A DNA stretch of 64,000 nucleotides from a virus. Its lineage: Duplodnaviria; Caudoviricetes. The stretch is from positions 32,001 to 96,000 of the IMG/VR virus record IMGVR_UViG_3300029305_012082; one strand, written 5' to 3'. The translations under genes and the position numbers were made by a program. Below the pieces are notes generated by a model. It made no database searches and had not been told where the DNA came from. It saw nothing but the letters and a program-made list of their open reading frames with translations. Of the stretch, positions 1 through 10,396 are shown one piece after another (the stretch's first letter is position 1; each line of letters begins with the position of its first letter).

Positions 1-2438
1 CCAAGATCAAGATCGAATTCAATCCGCTGTGGTCTTTGAGCGATGTAGAACAAGCTGATCTCGACAACAAACGGGCAAACACCGAGTTGGTGAAGGCACA
101 AACCGCACAAGCATACATCGACATGCAGGTCTACGATCCAAGCGAGATCAGAAAGAAGCTTGCCCAAGCAAATGACTTCGAAATCGATGATGTAATTAGC
201 GAAGAGGATCTGGAAGAAGATTTCTTTGCTTCTTTGGAAGAAACGGCTGAACCTACAACTAGGTTGGCTGCAAACCCCGACGCTGTCCACGAGACAAAGA
301 CAGCGGCTGAAGGTAGTACGCCTACGAATGCGCCGGCAGCAACGAAGCTTCCTCAGGATATGACGGCGCAGGAAATCGGAGAGGTAGCAAAGAACACCGA
401 TGAAGATGATGCAGTGTGGAATCCTTTTGGCGTTGGCGTTCTTGTAATAAAGGATGGAAAAATTCTTACTGGAACGAGGCACAATGACTCCGGATATGGA
501 CTCATCGGAGGCCCCGGTGGTCATGGAGAAGAAGGTGAAAGCCCTGAAGAGGCAGCTTTTCGTGAAACCGAGGAAGAATTCGGTATCAGCGCAAAAGAAC
601 TGATCCCCATTGGATTAGGCCCTTTTGAACCCGAAAGTGGGCTGCAATCTCATCTTTTCATCTGCACAGAATATGACGGTGAACCCGACTGTGTTGATAT
701 GGAGATGGTCAATCCCAAATTCCGCACCTTGGAAGAATTGGAACAGCTGGATGCGTCCCTGTTCCCACCGTTCAAGGACAGCTTAGAGATCCTGAAAAGG
801 GAACTCTGTGGAAAACGGGATGACGGTGGCCCCGGCTCCGGTAACTGGGGACATGCTGGTAGACCCGGTAAAAAGGGTGGCTCTTCAGGAGGTGGCGGTG
901 CACATAACCGCATGGGATCTTCTGAGGAAGGATATACTTCCTTCTCCAAGGAAAAAAAGAAGATGGCAAAGCCGCACAAGCTCTCTCACGAAGAACTTTC
1001 CAAGTGTCCCAATGGTACTGTCATCGCTGGCATGGCTGGTCACTACAAAAAAGCCAAGATTGAAGTTTGGAACAACGAGACGTTCGACTATGAATTTAAG
1101 GAAGGCTTCGTCAGCGATGACTGGGGAGATTTCCTTGAAATCGATCAGGTAATTTCTGCTGCCGGTAACGATTCCTATGGTCTCGCAATTCCCGACAGCG
1201 CCAACAAGAACTACCTCAAACCGAAGGGAGATCCTTTCTCTGACGAACGGAGAACCAACGCATTCAAGGCATCTGAAGCTCGTGATGCTGATGACCTGCT
1301 CAGAGAGAAAAGTGGACATATTTGGCGAGGACTGGATGATGCATCCAAAGATGCCCTCGTTGGATACACGGGCGAAACATACTTTGATATAAACAGCGGC
1401 TTACGAAATGGCTATAATGTATCAGACAGCATCCGGAAAGACACGGAACTCTTGACAAATGCAATTTCTCAATCTGTTCTGGATAGAGACATGTATCTGT
1501 TCCGTGGCACTAGCAGCAGCGCGGCAGAGAAACTTTTCGGCTTAAAATCTGGCGATCTCGCTACTTGGAGCGGTCAGATCGAAGATCTGAGCACATTGGT
1601 CGGAACACGAGGTATCGACAACGGCTTTTTGTCCTGCGGAACGTCTGAAGGCAAAGGATTCACCAGCCGAGATGTCCAGTTGAAGATATACTGTCCTGCC
1701 GGAACACAGGCACTTTACGCCGAACCCTTCTCTGCATTCGGACGTGGCGATCAGCGAAGCTGGGATGGTATCAGCAAGCAGAATTCCTTCTCTTCTGAAA
1801 ACGAAACAATCCTTCAAAGAGGATGTGAGCTGCGTATTGTTGGTGCGGAATGGTCTGGAAACAAGGCTATTCTGGAAGTTGAAGTGCTATCCCAGATGAA
1901 TAATACCATCAAATCAGATGGAGATGACCTAGATGGCTTCTCAAAATCATCGAATCCTGATAATCTCGAAAAACATCTTGACTTTTACGGTCAATCAGCT
2001 ACGATAAAGTCACAAGATAACTTCGATGGCGGCTCCGGCTCCGGAAACCATGGACACAGAGGTGTTAAGGGTCAACGGGGAGGATCTGCAGCAAAGTCCT
2101 CCCATCCCAAAGTCACAAAGTTCACAACCCAGAATGGGAGAATGAAGATTACTTCAGATCTTAAAGTCAAAGCGAGTAAATCTGGGAAAGTATCTGTTAC
2201 GATAAAAGCGGGACAGGAAATCGAAGGGATTTATTCTTTTGCTGGGAAGGGGTCGAATGCAAATCTTGTGGTATCCGGCACACTGTCCAAACAATATGGA
2301 GGCAAACCGAAAGACTGGTCCCACTTGTGTGGTTATGCAACCGTTGTCAATTCAAACGGAAGCCAAGAACGGGCGGAGATCCACTGGTTTGAGCATGAAA
2401 CGGTAGGCCAGATAAATTTCAAAGTTAAAAAAAGGTAG
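1..2438 (+). CDS. 5'-truncated portal-like protein (DUF1073-type C-terminus) fused to Nudix, VIP2/C3-like ADP-ribosyltransferase and a C-terminal putative toxin domain
   Basis: Frame is open from base 3 (KIKIEFNPLWSLSDVEQA...YDPSEIR, portal-like end), so the start lies outside the window. Nudix box GGHGEEGESPEEAAFRETEEEFG; ART motifs YTG..INSGLR, LFRG, FLSC, ENE; lies upstream of head genes. Confidence 0.8.
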   Translation, partial: KIKIEFNPLWSLSDVEQADLDNKRANTELVKAQTAQAYIDMQVYDPSEIRKKLAQANDFEIDDVISEEDLEEDFFASLEETAEPTTRLAANPDAVHETKTAAEGSTPTNAPAATKLPQDMTAQEIGEVAKNTDEDDAVWNPFGVGVLVIKDGKILTGTRHNDSGYGLIGGPGGHGEEGESPEEAAFRETEEEFGISAKELIPIGLGPFEPESGLQSHLFICTEYDGEPDCVDMEMVNPKFRTLEELEQLDASLFPPFKDSLEILKRELCGKRDDGGPGSGNWGHAGRPGKKGGSSGGGGAHNRMGSSEEGYTSFSKEKKKMAKPHKLSHEELSKCPNGTVIAGMAGHYKKAKIEVWNNETFDYEFKEGFVSDDWGDFLEIDQVISAAGNDSYGLAIPDSANKNYLKPKGDPFSDERRTNAFKASEARDADDLLREKSGHIWRGLDDASKDALVGYTGETYFDINSGLRNGYNVSDSIRKDTELLTNAISQSVLDRDMYLFRGTSSSAAEKLFGLKSGDLATWSGQIEDLSTLVGTRGIDNGFLSCGTSEGKGFTSRDVQLKIYCPAGTQALYAEPFSAFGRGDQRSWDGISKQNSFSSENETILQRGCELRIVGAEWSGNKAILEVEVLSQMNNTIKSDGDDLDGFSKSSNPDNLEKHLDFYGQSATIKSQDNFDGGSGSGNHGHRGVKGQRGGSAAKSSHPKVTKFTTQNGRMKITSDLKVKASKSGKVSVTIKAGQEIEGIYSFAGKGSNANLVVSGTLSKQYGGKPKDWSHLCGYATVVNSNGSQERAEIHWFEHETVGQINFKVKKR
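1978..2005 (+). promoter_or_regulatory. copy of the phage promoter motif inside the portal fusion ORF
   Basis: TTGACT-16nt-TACGAT followed by AAAGTCACA, as at 51209. Confidence 0.6.
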
Positions 2439-2975: not shown

Positions 2976-3767
2976 ATGATTGGTGCAATTGTAGGAGATA
3001 TTGTAGGCTCCATTTATGAATTCGATAATCACAGAGGCAAGGAGTTTCCTTTGTTCGGAAAAGGATGCTTCGCAACAGATGACAGCATTATGACTTTGGC
3101 GATTGCCAAGGCGGTTATGCTCAGTAAGCCGGATCACAGTGATCTTGGCAGAAATGCCGTCAAGCACATGCGAGAAGTTGGTCAGCCGTACCCATCTTGC
3201 GGGTATGGAGGCCGGTTTTTTCAGTGGATGTACAGCGACAATCCAGCCCCGTACAACAGCTTCGGAAACGGGGCCGCCATGAGAGTTAGTCCTGTTGCAT
3301 ACGAAGCGAAGTCGTTGGAAGATGTGAAGCTGATGTCTCGGCTTGTGACTGAGGTAACTCACAATCATCCCGAAGGGATTAAAGGCGCAGAGGCTGTAGC
3401 GGTGGCCACATGGCTTGCGCTTCATGATTTCGATAAAAGCGAAATCGATCATTATATCCGGGAGAACTACTATCCGATGGATTTCACGATTGATGAGATC
3501 CGTCCGACATATCGGTTCAATGAAACCTGTCAGGATACTGTCCCCCAAGCGATCAAGGCATTTTTGGAGTCCGAAAACTTCGAGGATGCGATCCGGATTG
3601 CGATTTCTGTTGGCGGTGACAGCGACACTTTAGCGTCTATTACTGGAGCAATAGCCGGTGCGTACTACGGTGTGCCCTCGGCAATCAAAATTCAAGCAAA
3701 TCGGTATCTCGATGATCGGCTTTCTGTGATTTTAAGGGATTTTTGTTTGCGTTACGGCGCAGCATGA
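2976..3767 (+). CDS. ADP-ribosylglycohydrolase (ARH/DraG/Tri1 family)
   Basis: GAIVGDIVGS, TDD, GNGAAMRVSP, THNHPEG and GGDSDT motifs. Confidence 0.95.
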   Translation: MIGAIVGDIVGSIYEFDNHRGKEFPLFGKGCFATDDSIMTLAIAKAVMLSKPDHSDLGRNAVKHMREVGQPYPSCGYGGRFFQWMYSDNPAPYNSFGNGAAMRVSPVAYEAKSLEDVKLMSRLVTEVTHNHPEGIKGAEAVAVATWLALHDFDKSEIDHYIRENYYPMDFTIDEIRPTYRFNETCQDTVPQAIKAFLESENFEDAIRIAISVGGDSDTLASITGAIAGAYYGVPSAIKIQANRYLDDRLSVILRDFCLRYGAA

Positions 3768-3825: not shown

Positions 3826-3900
3826 GTCGTGGTAGATCAGAAGGTAGATCACCGGGAAGGCATAGCCCGACAGTCGCAGGTTCAAGTCCTGCCCACGGCA
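3826..3900 (+). tRNA. degenerate tRNA-like element (Met-like; CAT in a 9-nt loop; no CCA)
   Basis: Acceptor GTCGTGG/CCACGGC, D stem GATC/GATC, T arm GCAGG-TTCAAGT-CCTGC; anticodon loop AAGGCATAG is non-canonical. Confidence 0.55.
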
Positions 3901-4003
3901 CAACTCCCGGAAGCGGGGCTATTTTCTACTCCTTTGTAACTTGACGGCTCGGAAAAGACGAGAAGTGCTGTGTAGCGTGGTTGAGCTACACAGTGCGCCT
4001 TAT

Positions 4004-4088
4004 GGGGCAGTGGCGAAATGAAAACGCTGGGGACGATTTCCTCTAGTGCTGTTGCACCTTGTTGGTTCAAATCCAACCTGCCCCACCA
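4004..4088 (+). tRNA. degenerate class II tRNA-like element, anticodon undetermined
   Basis: Acceptor GGGGCAG/CTGCCCC plus ACCA, T arm GTTGG-TTCAAAT-CCAAC, variable stem GTGC/GCAC; irregular anticodon arm. Confidence 0.6.
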
Positions 4089-4188
4089 CCCACGAAAGTG
4101 GGATCTTCCTCTCTTTTTCTTGTTTTGACAGCTCGGAATAGACGGCAATGCCCTGTAGAATTCATTCGCCTCTGCAGGGCAAACATAC

Positions 4189-4264
4189 GCTGCTATAGCT
4201 CAGTCGGTAGAGCAGCTGATTTGTAATCAGCAGGTCGTCGGTTCGAGTCCGACTAGCAGCTCCA
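4189..4264 (+). tRNA. tRNA-Thr(TGT)
   Basis: Full cloverleaf; GCTGA-TTTGTAA-TCAGC; CCA. Confidence 0.95.
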
Positions 4265-4367
4265 CTGTGGTGTGGTGAACCACAGAGGCTTTCATTTCTC
4301 ATTCTTCTGGCAGCTCGGAAAGACGAGCAGTGCTGGACGATCCTCCTATTCGCCCAGCACATCATAT

Positions 4368-4441
4368 GCCGCAGTAGTTCAATGGCAGAACACCAGCCTT
4401 CCAAGCTGGTTGCGCGGGTTCGATTCCCGTTTGCGGCTCCA
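4368..4441 (+). tRNA. tRNA-Gly(TCC)
   Basis: CCAGC-CTTCCAA-GCTGG; CCA. Confidence 0.95.
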
Positions 4442-4666
4442 AATCCGAGGTGTACATGGGCCGTTGCCGACATAAGGCAGCGCAAGCCGGTTGCCGCGCT
4501 ACACGATAGGAGAAAACAGCTGGGTCGCTCCCATCCGACAGCCGGACGGAATACAGACCGATAGTACTGTGACACGACGGACAGCGACGCCGAACAGGCC
4601 AGAACGAGAGGCCGGCAGACACGCCGCCAGCTGACTTAGAGAGCAGAAAAGATGCGTGTCCGATAT

Positions 4667-4741
4667 AGGGGTGTCGCCAAGAGGAAAGGCACGGGACTTT
4701 GACTCCCGTATTCGCAGGTTCGATCCCTGCCATCCCTGCCA
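4667..4741 (+). tRNA. tRNA-Gln(TTG)
   Basis: CGGGA-CTTTGAC-TCCCG; CCA. Confidence 0.93.
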
Positions 4742-4854
4742 AGGACATATATGTCCTTACCAAGAGCCGAAAACAACCTGCTTGCGCGACAACGACTGCG
4801 TACCACGCGGGAACAGTGTAAGCGGGTTCTTTCGGTAATTGCCAACATTGAAAT

Positions 4855-4942
4855 GGGAGCTTCGCCAAGCGGTGAAGGCATCGGTCTTGAAAACCGACAG
4901 GGCAGTAATGTCGCATGGGTTCGAATCCCTTAGCTCCCGCCA
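4855..4942 (+). tRNA. tRNA-Ser(TGA)
   Basis: TCGGT-CTTGAAA-ACCGA; long variable arm; G discriminator plus CCA. Confidence 0.92.
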
Positions 4943-4967
4943 AAACCAACAGTGATGAAGATTTGAC

Positions 4968-5050
4968 CTCCGCATGAAGGAATGGTAGACTAACTTGTCT
5001 CAAAAACAAGTGCCATCGGCGTCCCGGTTCGAGTCCGGGTGCGGAGACCA
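4968..5050 (+). tRNA. tRNA-Leu(CAA)
   Basis: CTTGT-CTCAAAA-ACAAG; variable arm; CCA; weak D stem. Confidence 0.85.
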
Positions 5051-5209
5051 GCCGGTATGCTTCATCTAGACATAGTGTTGGGCGACTGTGACCCGGACTC
5101 TCGGAGTCCTCCTTCCAAAGAAAATCGCAGTCTGATCTTAAAGTGAGGCCGCTTACCCTTGTGGTGGAAAAGTAGCGGGAAAGAACAGAGGCGGGGCTGT
5201 TCATTTCGT

Positions 5210-5286
5210 GGGCCTTTAGCTCAGCGGGTCAGAGCCTCCGGCTCATAACCGGATCGTCCACGGTTCGAATCCGTGAAGGCCCACCA
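5210..5286 (+). tRNA. tRNA with CAT anticodon, probably Ile2 (lysidine type)
   Basis: TCCGG-CTCATAA-CCGGA; GGGCCTT/AAGGCCC acceptor resembles Ile2 rather than fMet. Confidence 0.85.
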
Positions 5287-5695: not shown

Positions 5696-6634
5696 TTGAA
5701 CCATAACCAACACCAACAAGCTGTAAAAAAGGCGGTAAAAGCGAAATTCAGGGGTCACACGACCCTGCACAGCAAGCGAACCCCACTATATCCAGACACG
5801 GCAGAGCGGGAATATATGAGGATCACAGCTGGTTACGTCAGGTTGATGAATCAGGTGTTGAGAGAGAACCTGCCTGAAATAATGACCGAGTACAGAGCGC
5901 AACGAACAGATGGTGTCAGAAACGACGATCTTCGTGACTTGGAATCTTGGCTGAGACAAAAGTTCCGACAAATGGCGCAAGAACTTGAAAAACGGGTTTC
6001 TGTATTCGGGCTAGAGAGACTTGTGGACAAAGTATCCAGAATGACACAACGGATGTCCCTGAGGGAATGGAAAAAGTCGGTTAAAGACACCTTGGGAATT
6101 GATCTCATGGATGACTACTATAGCGGAGAATTCTACGAGTCGATAGTTCACAGGTGGGTGGATGAAAACGTTCTAAAAATCAAAACGCTCCCTCAGAACA
6201 CACTGGATGAGATGCAGCAAATTATACTGCATGGCTTTAAGTCTGGCTCGACGATCAGAGACATCACGAAAGAGATCCAACGTGAATATGGAGTAACCAG
6301 AAGACGGGCAAGAACTCTTGCCAGAGATCAAATTGCAACACTGAATTCGCAGATAACAAAAGCCCAGCAACAAGATGCCGGATGCAACAGATACAGATGG
6401 TCCGATTCCCGTGATTCTCGTGTCCGAGAATGCCACCACGCTTTGAACGGCAAGATCTTCAGCTGGGACGATCCTCCGGAGATGTGGTACACGACCAAGA
6501 AACGAGGAGTTGTTCGCACCGGAAGACGTTGTCATCCCGGCGAAGATTACTGCTGCAGATGCATTGCTATTCCAGTATTCGATTATGAGACACTTGATGT
6601 CCCTATAAAAGAAACAGTAAGTCCCAAGGGGTAA
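5696..6634 (+). CDS. head morphogenesis protein (MuF/SPP1 gp7 family)
   Basis: RARTLARDQ, W...DSRVRECH and HPGEDYCCRC motifs. Confidence 0.92.
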   Translation: MNHNQHQQAVKKAVKAKFRGHTTLHSKRTPLYPDTAEREYMRITAGYVRLMNQVLRENLPEIMTEYRAQRTDGVRNDDLRDLESWLRQKFRQMAQELEKRVSVFGLERLVDKVSRMTQRMSLREWKKSVKDTLGIDLMDDYYSGEFYESIVHRWVDENVLKIKTLPQNTLDEMQQIILHGFKSGSTIRDITKEIQREYGVTRRRARTLARDQIATLNSQITKAQQQDAGCNRYRWSDSRDSRVRECHHALNGKIFSWDDPPEMWYTTKKRGVVRTGRRCHPGEDYCCRCIAIPVFDYETLDVPIKETVSPKG

Positions 6635-6934: not shown

Positions 6935-7276
6935 ATGAGAAACTACAGAGCAGTCGAAGATGTCAGCAGACATCTTTCGAAGATTTGCGAAAGCATTCAG
7001 AATTTGGCTTGCTCCATTGAGATGTACCAGCACATGGATGGTGATCTGGAAGCAACTTATGAAACTCTCATGCTCGACAAGCTTGAACATCTGCAGATGC
7101 TCACCTTGAAACTGACCGAACTGATTACTTCGGCAGAGGAGAGATCTGACAGTCAGGAGAACTTGGACGAAGGCGGCGGTGCTTTCTTTGCCGGCGAACT
7201 AGACGATGTCAAGAGAGATGAAGCGGCTGATGACAGAGATCCCACTTCCGTTAAAGCTGCGACAGCTGCAGAATAA
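6935..7276 (+). CDS. hypothetical head-region protein
   Basis: AAGGAG RBS; ORF track. Confidence 0.7.
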   Translation: MRNYRAVEDVSRHLSKICESIQNLACSIEMYQHMDGDLEATYETLMLDKLEHLQMLTLKLTELITSAEERSDSQENLDEGGGAFFAGELDDVKRDEAADDRDPTSVKAATAAE

Positions 7277-7304
7277 TCACCATTCTCCGAAAGGAGGGGA
7301 GCGC

Positions 7305-8837
7305 ATGCCCCCTAGCTTAGCAAAGGTGATTCGTCTGGACAATTTGCCATTGAACCAGACTTATTTCACCTCTGAAGGATATCTCGTAGACCGTCCTATT
7401 CTTACAACAACGGGTATATTCGAGTATCACAATGCTGACGGAAGCGTCAGAAGGGAGCTTCGACTCCCAGATGAAGTCTTTTCTGCTGAAAGCCTGAAGT
7501 CGTACAAGGGTCATCCGATTATCATAACCCATGATGCAGGTGAAGTTGACAAAAACAATGTCACCTCCCACCAGATCGGAACCATCCTTACAGAAGGATA
7601 TCGCAGTGGAGACGATGTCAGAGCTGAGATCATCATCCATGATACGGATAAGATGAAAGCAGCAGGACTCAAAGAACTTTCTCTTGGCTATCATGTCGAC
7701 CTAGACGAAACGCCCGGAGAATGGAATGGACAGCGATATGATGCCATTCAAAGAAACATTAGAATCAATCACCTCGCTTTGGTAAGAAACGCCAGAGCAG
7801 GTGAGCAGGCACGTCTGAACATTGACAGCCGTGATCCTGTCAGAAAACTACAAGGAGGAAAAGCAATGGCTAATCCCAAGCAAACTGAGACCAAGCCCAC
7901 TCAGCATGCCGACGGTCTCTTGACTTCAGAGCAGCTGGCTCAGGCAATTTCTGAGTACAAGGCTCGACGCAGTCAACAGCCTGTGCAGGACGAAGACCCC
8001 GTGCCTGCAGAAGAAACTGTCGTTGAAACCGCCGAGGAAACTGTTGTGGACGAAAACGCTGTTAGCGATGTCGAACAAAACGTTCTCACCACAGATGAAA
8101 AGATCTCTGCGATTAAGGAACGACAGGTGGCACGAGCCGGCGGAGAAGGTCCTTCTGATCTTGATGCCGCAAAGAGCGTTATTCTTCAGCAGGATGAGGA
8201 TCTGGCAACTCTGGTTGGTATCATCGATCAGATGAAGGCTGCTGAAGACTACAAGAACGCAAAGAATGATGCCGAGGACGATCAAAAGGACGAAGAAGTC
8301 CTGCCCGAGGACGACGTCAAAAATGATGAACAAGAGCCTGCCACTCCCGAAGAAACTGAAACGCACGAGGATCAAACTGATGTAGAAGATCCTGACGATC
8401 AGGATGATAAGAAGGATGGTGCTGGGTGCAATGAAGACTCTGCCGAAAGTGAGCCGACTACAGAACCTGCAGCCGAAGATGATAAGACCACCCTGAACGA
8501 AGATTCCATCGATGCAATCGTTACTCAGCGAGTGACCCTTGGCATTATGGGCCGCCAGCTGAATTTGGACGGCCTTGAGCACATGCCTGTTCTGGATGCA
8601 AAGAAGGCTATTATCTCCGCTGTCCGTCCCGGCATGCGGCTCGATGGCAAGAGTGAAGATTACATTGCTGCGGCGTTTGACCTTGCAGCTGCTGAAATCG
8701 AAGCTCAAAGTGAAAAGGACACCGCTTATCAAAAGCGACAGATGTTCAACAAGGACTCTGGTGCCGCAGAAGAAGCCGGCACCTCTGCTGCTGACGCTCG
8801 TCAGAGAATGATCGACCGTCAGACCAATAAGATTTAA
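7305..8837 (+). CDS. DUF2213-type prohead protease/scaffold
   Basis: EGYL...TGIFEY, ELSLGY and NHLALVRNARAG motifs; acidic C-terminal half; start moved to ATG after GGAGG. Confidence 0.88.
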   Translation: MPPSLAKVIRLDNLPLNQTYFTSEGYLVDRPILTTTGIFEYHNADGSVRRELRLPDEVFSAESLKSYKGHPIIITHDAGEVDKNNVTSHQIGTILTEGYRSGDDVRAEIIIHDTDKMKAAGLKELSLGYHVDLDETPGEWNGQRYDAIQRNIRINHLALVRNARAGEQARLNIDSRDPVRKLQGGKAMANPKQTETKPTQHADGLLTSEQLAQAISEYKARRSQQPVQDEDPVPAEETVVETAEETVVDENAVSDVEQNVLTTDEKISAIKERQVARAGGEGPSDLDAAKSVILQQDEDLATLVGIIDQMKAAEDYKNAKNDAEDDQKDEEVLPEDDVKNDEQEPATPEETETHEDQTDVEDPDDQDDKKDGAGCNEDSAESEPTTEPAAEDDKTTLNEDSIDAIVTQRVTLGIMGRQLNLDGLEHMPVLDAKKAIISAVRPGMRLDGKSEDYIAAAFDLAAAEIEAQSEKDTAYQKRQMFNKDSGAAEEAGTSAADARQRMIDRQTNKI

Positions 8838-9358: not shown

Positions 9359-10396
9359 ATGAATATGAGCACTCATACCAACTACAACCCTTCTGAAATG
9401 AAGGCTCTGCAGAATTCTGCTATCCCCACCGCCATCATGGCTTCTCCCGGCACAAGATTTGACAGCGCAGAACAGGCATCTGTTTTCTTTGCACAGGAAC
9501 TGGATCACGTCAAGGCTCAGTCCTACGACGTGGAATATCCTGAACTGACAGCTCTGAGCCTGTTCCCCGTCAGCTCTGAAGTTGACCCCGGCGCTGAGAC
9601 CGTTACTTATCATACCTACGATAAGACCGGCCTCGCAAAGGTCATCGACAACTATTCCACCGATCTGCCCCGTGCAGACGTGAACGGCAAGCCCGTCCAT
9701 GCAATCATCAAGTCCGTCGGCGACTCCTATGGTTACTCCGCACAGGAAATGAGAGCATCCAGACTGGCTGGCAAGTCCCTGGACTCCAGAAAGGCCGAAT
9801 CTGCACGTTTCCAGATCGACAACATTCTGAACAAGATCGCATGGGCCGGCGATGCAGAGTCCGGCCTGATGGGCGTTCTGTCCGAAGGTCAGAATATTCC
9901 TCTGTTCGCCATCGGCGCTGGTGCAAGCGGTGCTACCTCTTGGCTGGAAAAGACCGCAGATGAAATTCTGGCCGATGTTGCCGGTATGCAGAAGCAGGTC
10001 GCAAAGATGACAAAGAACGTTGAGCGTCCTGATACCCTTTGCCTGCCCTCCGATGTCTATCTGCATCTGAGCACTACCAGAATCCCCGACACTACCACCA
10101 CCGTGCTGTCCTTCATCAAGGAACATGCTCCCTATATCAAGAACATCGTTTCTGCCGCCGAGCTGGACAGCGACAGCACCTTCACCAATCCCTATGCTGC
10201 TGAAGAAGACGGTCAGGGCGTTGCATTCCTGTTCAAGAACGACAAGCGCAAGCTGTCTCTGGAAAATCCCATGCCCTTCTATCAGTATCCTCTGCAGGTC
10301 AGAAATCTGGAAACCATCATTCCTTGCGAGGCACGAACTGCCGGCGTCATTGTGTACTATCCCATGTCCGCTCTGATTGCCGTTGGCGTGTCCTGA
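9359..10396 (+). CDS. major capsid protein (DUF2184 type)
   Basis: YDKTGLAK, YGYSAQE, IAWAGD and RTAGVIVYYP motifs; strong codon bias. Confidence 0.9.
   Translation: MNMSTHTNYNPSEMKALQNSAIPTAIMASPGTRFDSAEQASVFFAQELDHVKAQSYDVEYPELTALSLFPVSSEVDPGAETVTYHTYDKTGLAKVIDNYSTDLPRADVNGKPVHAIIKSVGDSYGYSAQEMRASRLAGKSLDSRKAESARFQIDNILNKIAWAGDAESGLMGVLSEGQNIPLFAIGAGASGATSWLEKTADEILADVAGMQKQVAKMTKNVERPDTLCLPSDVYLHLSTTRIPDTTTTVLSFIKEHAPYIKNIVSAAELDSDSTFTNPYAAEEDGQGVAFLFKNDKRKLSLENPMPFYQYPLQVRNLETIIPCEARTAGVIVYYPMSALIAVGVS

Follow-up and report, generated by a model that had tools for sequence, protein, structure and literature searches.

A near-invariant glycine-rich peptide heads unrelated effector modules in phage proteins and may mark a site of release by the head protease

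The stretch of DNA analysed here (hereafter the window) comprises 64,000 nucleotides, bases 32001–96000 of the 104,687-base IMG/VR provirus record IMGVR_UViG_3300029305_012082 from a gut phage, and opens with a portal polyprotein in which a Gly-rich peptide of 20 residues is found twice, each copy standing at the head of a separate module. The protein (P0002; 1211 residues, L001:303–3935; full gene L001:303–3938) begins ∼1.2 kb upstream of the window, and its C-terminal 811 residues are encoded at 3–2438 on the plus strand, as are all the features described below. Its parts follow one another in the order portal, NUDIX, motif, ADP-ribosyltransferase (ART), motif and a small C-terminal domain. 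The N-terminal part is a portal domain of the Phage_portal_3/HI1409 type (phrog_15528 portal; TIGR01555), and is joined by an acidic, Pro-rich linker, in which the motif is absent, to a NUDIX hydrolase domain at 426–740 (PF00293, E 2.3e-12; residues 142–246 of the part within the window). The first copy of the motif, DDGGPGSGNWGHAGRPGKKGGS, is located at 819–884, where it reads DD-GGPGSGNWGHAGRPGKKGGS and runs into a Gly-rich tail, SGGGGAHNRMG, whose HNRMG continuation is also present in other phages (L036, L143). The module that follows, at 885–2021, is made up of ∼145 residues with no Pfam or PHROG match, the ART domain (∼1326–1853; PF03496 ADPrib_exo_Tox, E 4.9e-17; phrog_16625, a Bxa-type ART) and a linker. 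The second copy, FDGGSGSGNHGHRGVKGQRGGS, at 2022–2087, reads FD-GGSGSGNHGHRGVKGQRGGS and represents a subtype, GNHGHxGV[PK]GQxGGS; it precedes the second module, a conserved, beta-rich domain of 116 residues at 2088–2435 with an invariant HWFE.

Both copies are in frame within a single open reading frame (ORF). A six-frame search of the window with a regular expression finds exactly these two, the whole 104.7-kb record holds no others, and a back-translated DNA pattern gives 2 matches in the window compared with 0 in 100 dinucleotide-preserving shuffles. A first-pass annotation of this DNA had placed the copies ahead of the ART module and the last domain, and they are indeed found there, with coordinates that agree to within 3 nucleotides; the 23-residue strings that it gave start one codon ahead of the positions stated for them. 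Its statement that the protein motif is conserved while the DNA has diverged is likewise borne out, the two copies sharing 14 of 22 residues and 41 of 66 bases. The nearest cultured relative, judged by the portal-NUDIX portion, is Faecalibacterium phage FP_Brigit, at 54% identity.

The motif can be written as GG-x-GSGN-x-GH-x-G-xx-G-xx-GGS, and is nearly invariant. In a logo of 180 distinct copies it takes the form [D/K/L]-G-G-[P]-G-S-G-N-[F/W/H/Y]-G-H-x-G-[R]-[P]-G-[E/Q/K]-[V/R/I]-G-G-S, and behind it comes a variable stretch rich in Gly and Ser. Positions that were free in the search pattern, namely the two leading Gly, the Arg, the Pro and the final Ser, are still 83–100% conserved, and thirteen positions are invariant or nearly so in the ∼180 copies, which come from diverse phages. 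In viral contigs at least 110 stretches match the back-translated pattern, many of them with 2–9 copies. A profile of 35 columns (A3), run over 1.84 billion representative proteins, matches 6125 clusters (formed at 50% identity) at E ≤0.001, 961 at 1e-10 and 163 at 1e-30, the maximum in one protein being 10 copies. Species genomes contain 68 true copies in prophage-like DNA, mostly of Clostridia, and further hosts are found among the Dehalococcoidia, Omnitrophota, Acidobacteria, Elusimicrobia and Succinivibrio, together with two archaea. Matches in Streptomyces and Burkholderia were rejected as chance Gly-rich sequence.

Pfam and NCBIfam scans of the motif-bearing proteins place no family on the motif, and no PDB chain matches its profile at E ≤10. 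The motif strings were not found in the literature searched, which leaves room for an earlier description elsewhere, and the motif goes unmentioned in the papers on MuF toxins, polymorphic toxins, Apk2 and Bxa, as it does in the main text of the paper on polyvalent proteins discussed below. A tblastn search of the motif against 50,697 phage records gave no match, although low-complexity masking is likely and the result is therefore uninformative on cultured phages. Among isolates, those closest in portal or ART (FP_Brigit, Bacteroides phage Versailles and Bacillus phage S4-3) lack the motif.

The pattern of conservation bears directly on one possible function. G-R-P is present in ∼85% of copies and DNA is a partner common to all phages, such that a core resembling an AT-hook might tie cargo to the packaged genome and allow it to be pulled out with the DNA; the first-pass annotation had similarly considered a basic, DNA-binding peptide. 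This idea fares badly. The Arg is replaced by V/I/Q/L and the Pro by K/E/A in 14–17% of copies (86% and 83% conserved, respectively), the second copy in the window reads G-V-K-G, and P0041 has ten copies with G-L-x-G. Acidic flanks are frequent, with Glu the most common residue at position 12, and the residues that are strictly invariant are G, S, N and H, not R, unlike the R-G-R-P/G-R-P core with basic flanks that characterises an AT-hook. We consider such a DNA hook very improbable.

When the domains that follow the motif are listed, a check of the kind proposed with the first annotation, the motif is seen to lie at domain boundaries in other phages too, with unrelated effectors after it. 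A piece, measured from one motif to the next or to the stop codon, has a median length of 267 residues and is shorter than 100 residues in 5 of 158 cases; in 150 multi-copy proteins the gap between motifs has a median of 211 residues (5–95% range 124–503), and none is below 55. Since the pieces within one protein are mostly unrelated, with 24 homologous pairs in 576, the motif is not part of a repeated domain. ART families follow it in ∼22 of 150 pieces, and other domains found behind it are Zeta toxin, Top1B (topoisomerase IB), GNAT, ATLF (anthrax-LF-like peptidase), Ntox50, PBECR2, CdiA_C and nucleases; about two-thirds of the pieces have no Pfam match at E ≤0.001. PF18760 ART-PolyVal, ParB, GNAT and zincin motifs all occur among the motif-bearing proteins.

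What precedes the motif is a head protein (portal, MuF or DUF2213 protease) or a leader of 10–70 residues. Ahead of the first copy, in 80 related proteins, are found portal (17), NUDIX (12), MuF (4), DUF2213 (4) and Peptidase_S78 (4) domains, and the immediate upstream neighbours of tagged genes encode portal, terminase and MuF. MuF is present in 28 of 49 loci of at least 9 kb, a count that does not settle whether it is a universal partner. Many cargo genes stand alone, and in these the motif comes after a leader of median length 30 residues, often a short amphipathic stretch; one locus (L102) has four consecutive ART genes behind MuF. We conclude that the tag sits at the N-terminal edge of domain-sized effector modules, which are either fused to a head-assembly protein or encoded as separate genes. 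The NUDIX domain is the sole enzymatic domain of P0002 that has no header, and takes the same place, upstream of the first motif, in 12 of the 80 related proteins; it may stay on the portal ring.

Comparison of the portal polyproteins with one another suggests how their variety has arisen. Twenty-nine portal-NUDIX proteins, of 796–2054 residues, terminate in the C-terminal domain together with a motif subtype of its own, and in most of these relatives the subtype of the second copy is tied to that domain. The shortest relatives consist of portal, NUDIX, motif and domain, and the longer ones have one or more headed modules inserted before the last motif; the ART module of the window is such an insert, the whole of which is missing in the shortest relatives. 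Separate genes enter into the same exchange. A stand-alone gene in L026, comprising leader, motif and domain, shares 53% identity with an internal stretch of a 1508-residue protein in L020, and a module in L019 matches the part of the L020 protein that precedes the region matched by the L026 gene. Modules are added, lost, fused and split at the tag, as the first-pass annotation had supposed in calling it a portable tag and a junction for swapping cargo.

The C-terminal domain itself has invariant F-A-G, W-x-H, H-W-F-E and G-Q, and it ends portal-NUDIX proteins in many gut phages. AlphaFold2, provided with 22 relatives, models it as a beta-rich structure with one helix, at predicted local distance difference test (pLDDT) values >90. 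Its 116 residues have no Pfam or PHROG match, fold searches of the PDB give no match (Foldseek best E 0.34; VIA best Z 4.2), and the ESM Atlas yields weak SH3-like leads alone, with a score of 0.84.

Codon comparisons show that selection acts on the peptide, not on the DNA. At the 13 invariant residues, codon identity over 149 within-phage pairs is 0.41, compared with 0.33 expected from codon usage (0.30 between phages), and there is no signal of recombination at the DNA level. Homogenisation of the DNA as the cause of motif conservation was considered and is rejected by these codon identities. Because the residues are invariant while the synonymous sites are randomised, the motif is not a site of DNA-level recombination. 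The same comparison tells against a passive element, that is, a flexible spacer or recombination scar that travels with the cassettes and has no reader. Such an element would be disordered, and AlphaFold2 does predict that the motif is disordered on its own, with pLDDT below ∼50 for the motif and its flanks; the variable Gly/Ser-rich stretch behind it and the exchange of modules at it would also suit a spacer. Thirteen near-invariant positions next to randomised synonymous sites would not, however, and neither would the conservation of N, H, S and an aromatic residue, which spacers do not conserve, or the retention of the tag at the N-terminus of single-domain genes. We attach very little probability to this explanation, and together with the DNA hook it is the rival least compatible with the data.

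Distinct differences between phages are seen in the remaining positions. Identity at the ten variable positions of the motif is 0.67 within a phage and 0.38 between phages, and the values are 0.64 and 0.37, respectively, when the comparison is confined to pairs with randomised synonymous sites. The difference is sharpest at the residue immediately preceding the two leading glycines (the pre-GG residue), for which identity is 0.92 within a phage and 0.24 between phages; over 245 sources this residue is K in 77, D in 65, L in 50, N in 16 and A in 12. All 26 copies at loci with DUF2213 proteases of the window type or close to it have Asp here, whereas at loci with a divergent DUF2213 subtype, whose membership in the family was confirmed, the residue is A, L, M, N, H or Q, mostly in the setting [LI]-R-x-[AL]|GG, and never D or K. 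The pre-GG residue is thus constant within a phage, variable between phages and tracks the subtype of the head protease, and it is this that is new here.

The pre-GG signatures of both subtypes recur at the ends of the protease domains themselves, which read ..NIDSRD in the Asp-type subtype and ..GCGA-x-R-A-A in the divergent one. In the window the protease is a DUF2213 head-maturation protease fused to a scaffold-like tail (7206–8837; PF09979, E 1.8e-34; phrog_530), the called product of which starts at 7305, later than the start of the ORF at 7206. Its domain ends in ..RLNIDSRD and continues with ..LQGGK.., where relatives have TLKGGK (A6 consensus). The ..RLNIDSRD end is invariant in DUF2213 protease-scaffold proteins, and the conserved T-L-K-G-G-K behind it may be a place at which the protease cuts itself. 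The motif itself is found, in 7 of 29 protease genes, 15–35 residues after the protease domain, at the place where the others carry TLKGGK. An AlphaFold2 model of one natural fusion of protease and motif (L068) has a mean pLDDT of 44.8 and is unusable.

The capsid proteins of the Asp-type phages provide a further parallel. Just ahead of the conserved core they share ..G-T-R-F-D|S-A-E.. (12 relatives aligned), a possible maturation site, and this ..RFD|S resembles both ..DNFD|GG in the window and ..RRFD|GG in L102. In the related phage E217 the first 65 residues of the capsid protein are unseen in the virion (PMC10329688), which would agree with trimming without proving it; the structure papers on E217 and Pa193 give an invisible N-terminus only, and no cleavage site for the capsid protein. 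The proposal of the first-pass annotation that cleavage follows Asp is plausible but needs to be narrowed: it agrees with the 26 window-type copies and with the capsid ..RFD|SAE.., and it does not extend to the motif in general, in which Lys is more frequent (K 77, D 65, L 50). For the Lys-type phages, the downstream ORFs of ten loci include no protease family, and two Lys-type loci carry HK97-family capsid genes. The HK97 protease cuts its own capsid protein after a Lys.

The motif may be a portable cargo header that is cut before GG by the phage's own head protease, an explanation that we give an even chance on the comparisons above. It would serve as a header for proteins that travel inside the phage head, and would have two parts, the 3–4 phage-specific residues before GG and the invariant part. 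The phage-specific residues, in combination with a leader or the last part of the carrier domain, would present a site to the head-maturation protease of that phage, and the cut would fall between the pre-GG residue and GG; in P0002 this would be after Asp, at ..KRDD|GG and ..DNFD|GG, with the DUF2213 protease (7206–8837) as the candidate enzyme. The ART module and the C-terminal domain, 12 copies of each, would be cut free from the portal ring inside the capsid and would leave it with the DNA. Cargo fused to the portal cannot exit the capsid uncut, which, like the antidote-like hydrolase gene beside the ART, counts in favour of this explanation. Every freed cargo would then begin with the invariant part (GG-x-GSGN-aromatic-GH-x-GRPG-xx-GGS), which would be read by something common to all these phages, for which our guesses are the P' side of homologous head proteases, or a step in loading or ejection.

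Several considerations weigh against release by the head protease. The support for a cut comes from sequence comparison and gene context, and the agreement of pre-GG residue with protease subtype could stem from common descent of the phage lineages rather than from specificity. No motif-like site is found in the MuF, scaffold-protease, cement or capsid proteins of this phage, and the main substrates of the protease would thus lack the invariant part. Twenty invariant residues far exceed the needs of known head-protease sites, and Pro is the commonest residue (56%) two places after the proposed cut. The NUDIX domain has no motif before it, and in 2 of 25 relatives the C-terminal domain is kept without the motif. 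Finally, a zincin peptidase acting in cis could be the processing enzyme instead, given a tenfold enrichment of HExxH in the multi-copy proteins (84 compared with 8.8 expected).

This enrichment, which is spread over 59 of the 150 multi-copy proteins, is also an argument for a joint that is processed in cis, whether by zincin-like domains or by the motif itself, with its invariant Ser, Asn and His cutting intramolecularly through Asn cyclisation or an N-O acyl shift. Autoprocessing of polyvalent proteins by zincin-like peptidases is predicted in the main text of Iyer et al. 2017 (PMC5512222), the polar residues S, N, H and S are invariant among the glycines, and invariance across bacterial and archaeal viruses fits a chemistry that needs no partner. 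Self-processing has no need, however, for the same variable residues within a phage or for a pre-GG residue that follows the protease subtype, and a disordered 20-mer lacks the strained fold of known self-cleaving sites. Moreover, HExxH is absent from 61% of the multi-copy proteins and from the translation of the window protein, in which a Pfam scan also finds no peptidase family. We regard processing in cis as distinctly unlikely.

Separation could alternatively take place during translation, the motif being a prokaryotic counterpart of the viral 2A peptides at which the ribosome skips a peptide bond. A peptide-level signal of ∼20 residues at the joints of viral polyproteins would be in keeping with this, and bacteria and archaea have the ribosome in common, but the motif has no similarity to 2A (no NPG|P), skipping has no obvious use in single-domain genes with leaders of 8–30 residues or at C-terminal ends, and the phage-specific pre-GG residue tracks the protease type; we hold it to be extremely improbable. 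It is likewise improbable that the invariant 17–20 residues form a self-contained device, self-cleaving or ribosome-skipping, for which the upstream residues are only tuning. If this were true, polyproteins would be split and leaders shed with no enzyme dedicated to the task, in bacteria and archaea alike.

A header need not be cleaved at all, and could be a tag for loading or anchoring, with the peptide bound to a conserved receptor in the procapsid or to other copies of the motif. The motif comprises five Gly-x-y triplets, with Gly at every third residue, and triplets such as GNF-GHA-GRP-GEV-GGS could assemble into polyglycine-II or collagen-like bundles that recruit free cargo to a tagged portal, MuF or protease, much as in encapsulins. 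Separate cargo genes keep the tag at their N-terminus though they need no separation, a few carriers end with the motif plus ∼15 residues, resembling an empty socket (L018, L133, L170), and homogeneity within a phage is expected of self-contact or of a phage-specific receptor. In this phage, however, the record contains no free-standing tagged protein and both copies are tethered to the portal. A receptor site common to the motif-bearing phages is made less likely by their head proteins, which come from different families. The pre-GG residue shows no significant charge covariation with position 7 (p 0.25) or position 12 (p 0.52), and AlphaFold2 gives the motif no structure (pLDDT <50). Exit of portal-fused cargo from the capsid would also be left unexplained. 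An uncleaved loading tag is a possibility to be kept in mind, though on balance an unlikely one.

The motif-bearing proteins are the 'polyvalent proteins' of Iyer et al. 2017 (PMC5512222), as these are described in the main text of that paper. As there, many unrelated effector domains are joined in one polypeptide (ARTs including PF18760, ParB, GNAT, 2H phosphoesterase, Zeta and zincin), with an anchor on virion proteins and genes that lie within the head module, and packaging and injection are predicted; P0002, with NUDIX, ADPrib_exo_Tox and a third conserved domain, has the at least two unrelated domains by which such proteins are defined. The proteins described here differ in that a 20-residue header precedes each module, also in single-domain genes, and, in contrast to the processing by zincin peptidase domains set out in that text, the window protein has no zincin domain. 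The words 'glycine' and 'linker' do not occur in the main text of the paper (PMC5512222), and the passages on motifs there do not concern this peptide.

There is also a likeness to the MuF polymorphic toxins (Jamet et al. 2017, PMC5576092), including Bxa (PMC11699363) and Apk2 (PMC12226406), in which a head protein carries a C-terminal toxin and an immunity or antidote gene lies adjacent; the candidate for a corresponding pair here is the ART and an ADP-ribosylglycohydrolase. Unlike these toxins, which have MuF at the N-terminus, P0002 has the portal as its carrier, with MuF encoded by a separate gene, and it has several modules, not one. No junction motif is described in the MuF-toxin papers (PMC5576092, PMC11699363, PMC12226406). 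The MuF-ART of Bacteroides phage Versailles lacks the motif.

The internal proteins of phage T4 have a capsid targeting sequence that is removed by the prohead protease gp21 at (L/I)-x-E, and are injected with the DNA. The separate cargo genes resemble them in having a short N-terminal leader before a proposed site for the head protease, at which the residue preceding the cut is acidic. There is no likeness in sequence, however, and the T4 site has 3 residues, compared with the 17–20 invariant residues that follow the proposed cut here. Unlike the T4 sequence, the tag is also repeated within polyproteins and found in phage lineages that are not related. The cargo-loading peptides of encapsulins offer another parallel, in that enzymes of diverse kinds are marked for the interior of an HK97-fold shell by a short peptide that is disordered and rich in Gly. 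The encapsulin peptides are mostly found at the C-terminus, fit into a defined pocket on the shell protein and remain uncleaved, whereas the shells of the motif-bearing phages are of different families.

Some of the proteins compared here contain another junction motif, D-W-N-E-xx-H-P-R-D-xx-G-x-F, with a Gly/Ser stretch behind it. In the portal of FP_Brigit (L112:7957) it is located after NUDIX, in the place of the GSGN tag, and the two tags share proteins in P0076 and L020; it also occurs in P0023, P0111, L044 and L050. Its 7 copies compare with 0.16 expected by composition, and it may be an alternative header that is read in the same way as the GSGN tag.

The genes downstream of the polyprotein complete the head module. 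A small Cys-rich ORF of 76 residues (2715–2945; CxxC ... C-x-C ... PC) separates the polyprotein from the glycohydrolase gene. Its relatives are small ORFs in five other cargo regions (L029, L036, L074, L092, L102), and in L080 a relative is fused ahead of a motif-tagged cargo as a 'leader'. The ADP-ribosylglycohydrolase gene (2976–3767; phrog_6572, E 1.1e-53) and the ART module are 540 bp apart. Bxa is paired with an ADP-ribosyl hydrolase antidote that protects the producing cell (PMC11699363), and by analogy the glycohydrolase is likely to be the antidote or immunity partner of the ART cargo, with the same protective role. Eight tRNA genes (Cys, Pro, Thr, Gly, Gln, Ser, Leu, Met) at 3826–5286 separate the cargo region from the gene for a MuF-like head morphogenesis protein (5696–6634; phrog_324, E 2.2e-68). 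An acidic ORF of 113 residues with no family (6935–7276) runs into the beginning of the protease-scaffold ORF. The major capsid protein, with its conserved N-terminal ..GTRFD|SAEQ.., is encoded at 9359–10396 (PF09950, E 4.1e-59). A cement protein gene is also located downstream, in the head module with the MuF, protease-scaffold and capsid genes.

Phages inject proteins carried in the head ahead of gene expression in order to disarm the host, and such cargo is hard to recognise by sequence. A near-invariant header in more than 6000 clusters would allow candidate injected effectors to be listed directly, and the tag would explain how polyvalent proteins gain and lose their modules. The link between the pre-GG residue and the head protease makes the release of portal- or MuF-fused effectors an experimentally simple question, and the tag may also provide a handle by which chosen proteins could be loaded into phage heads.

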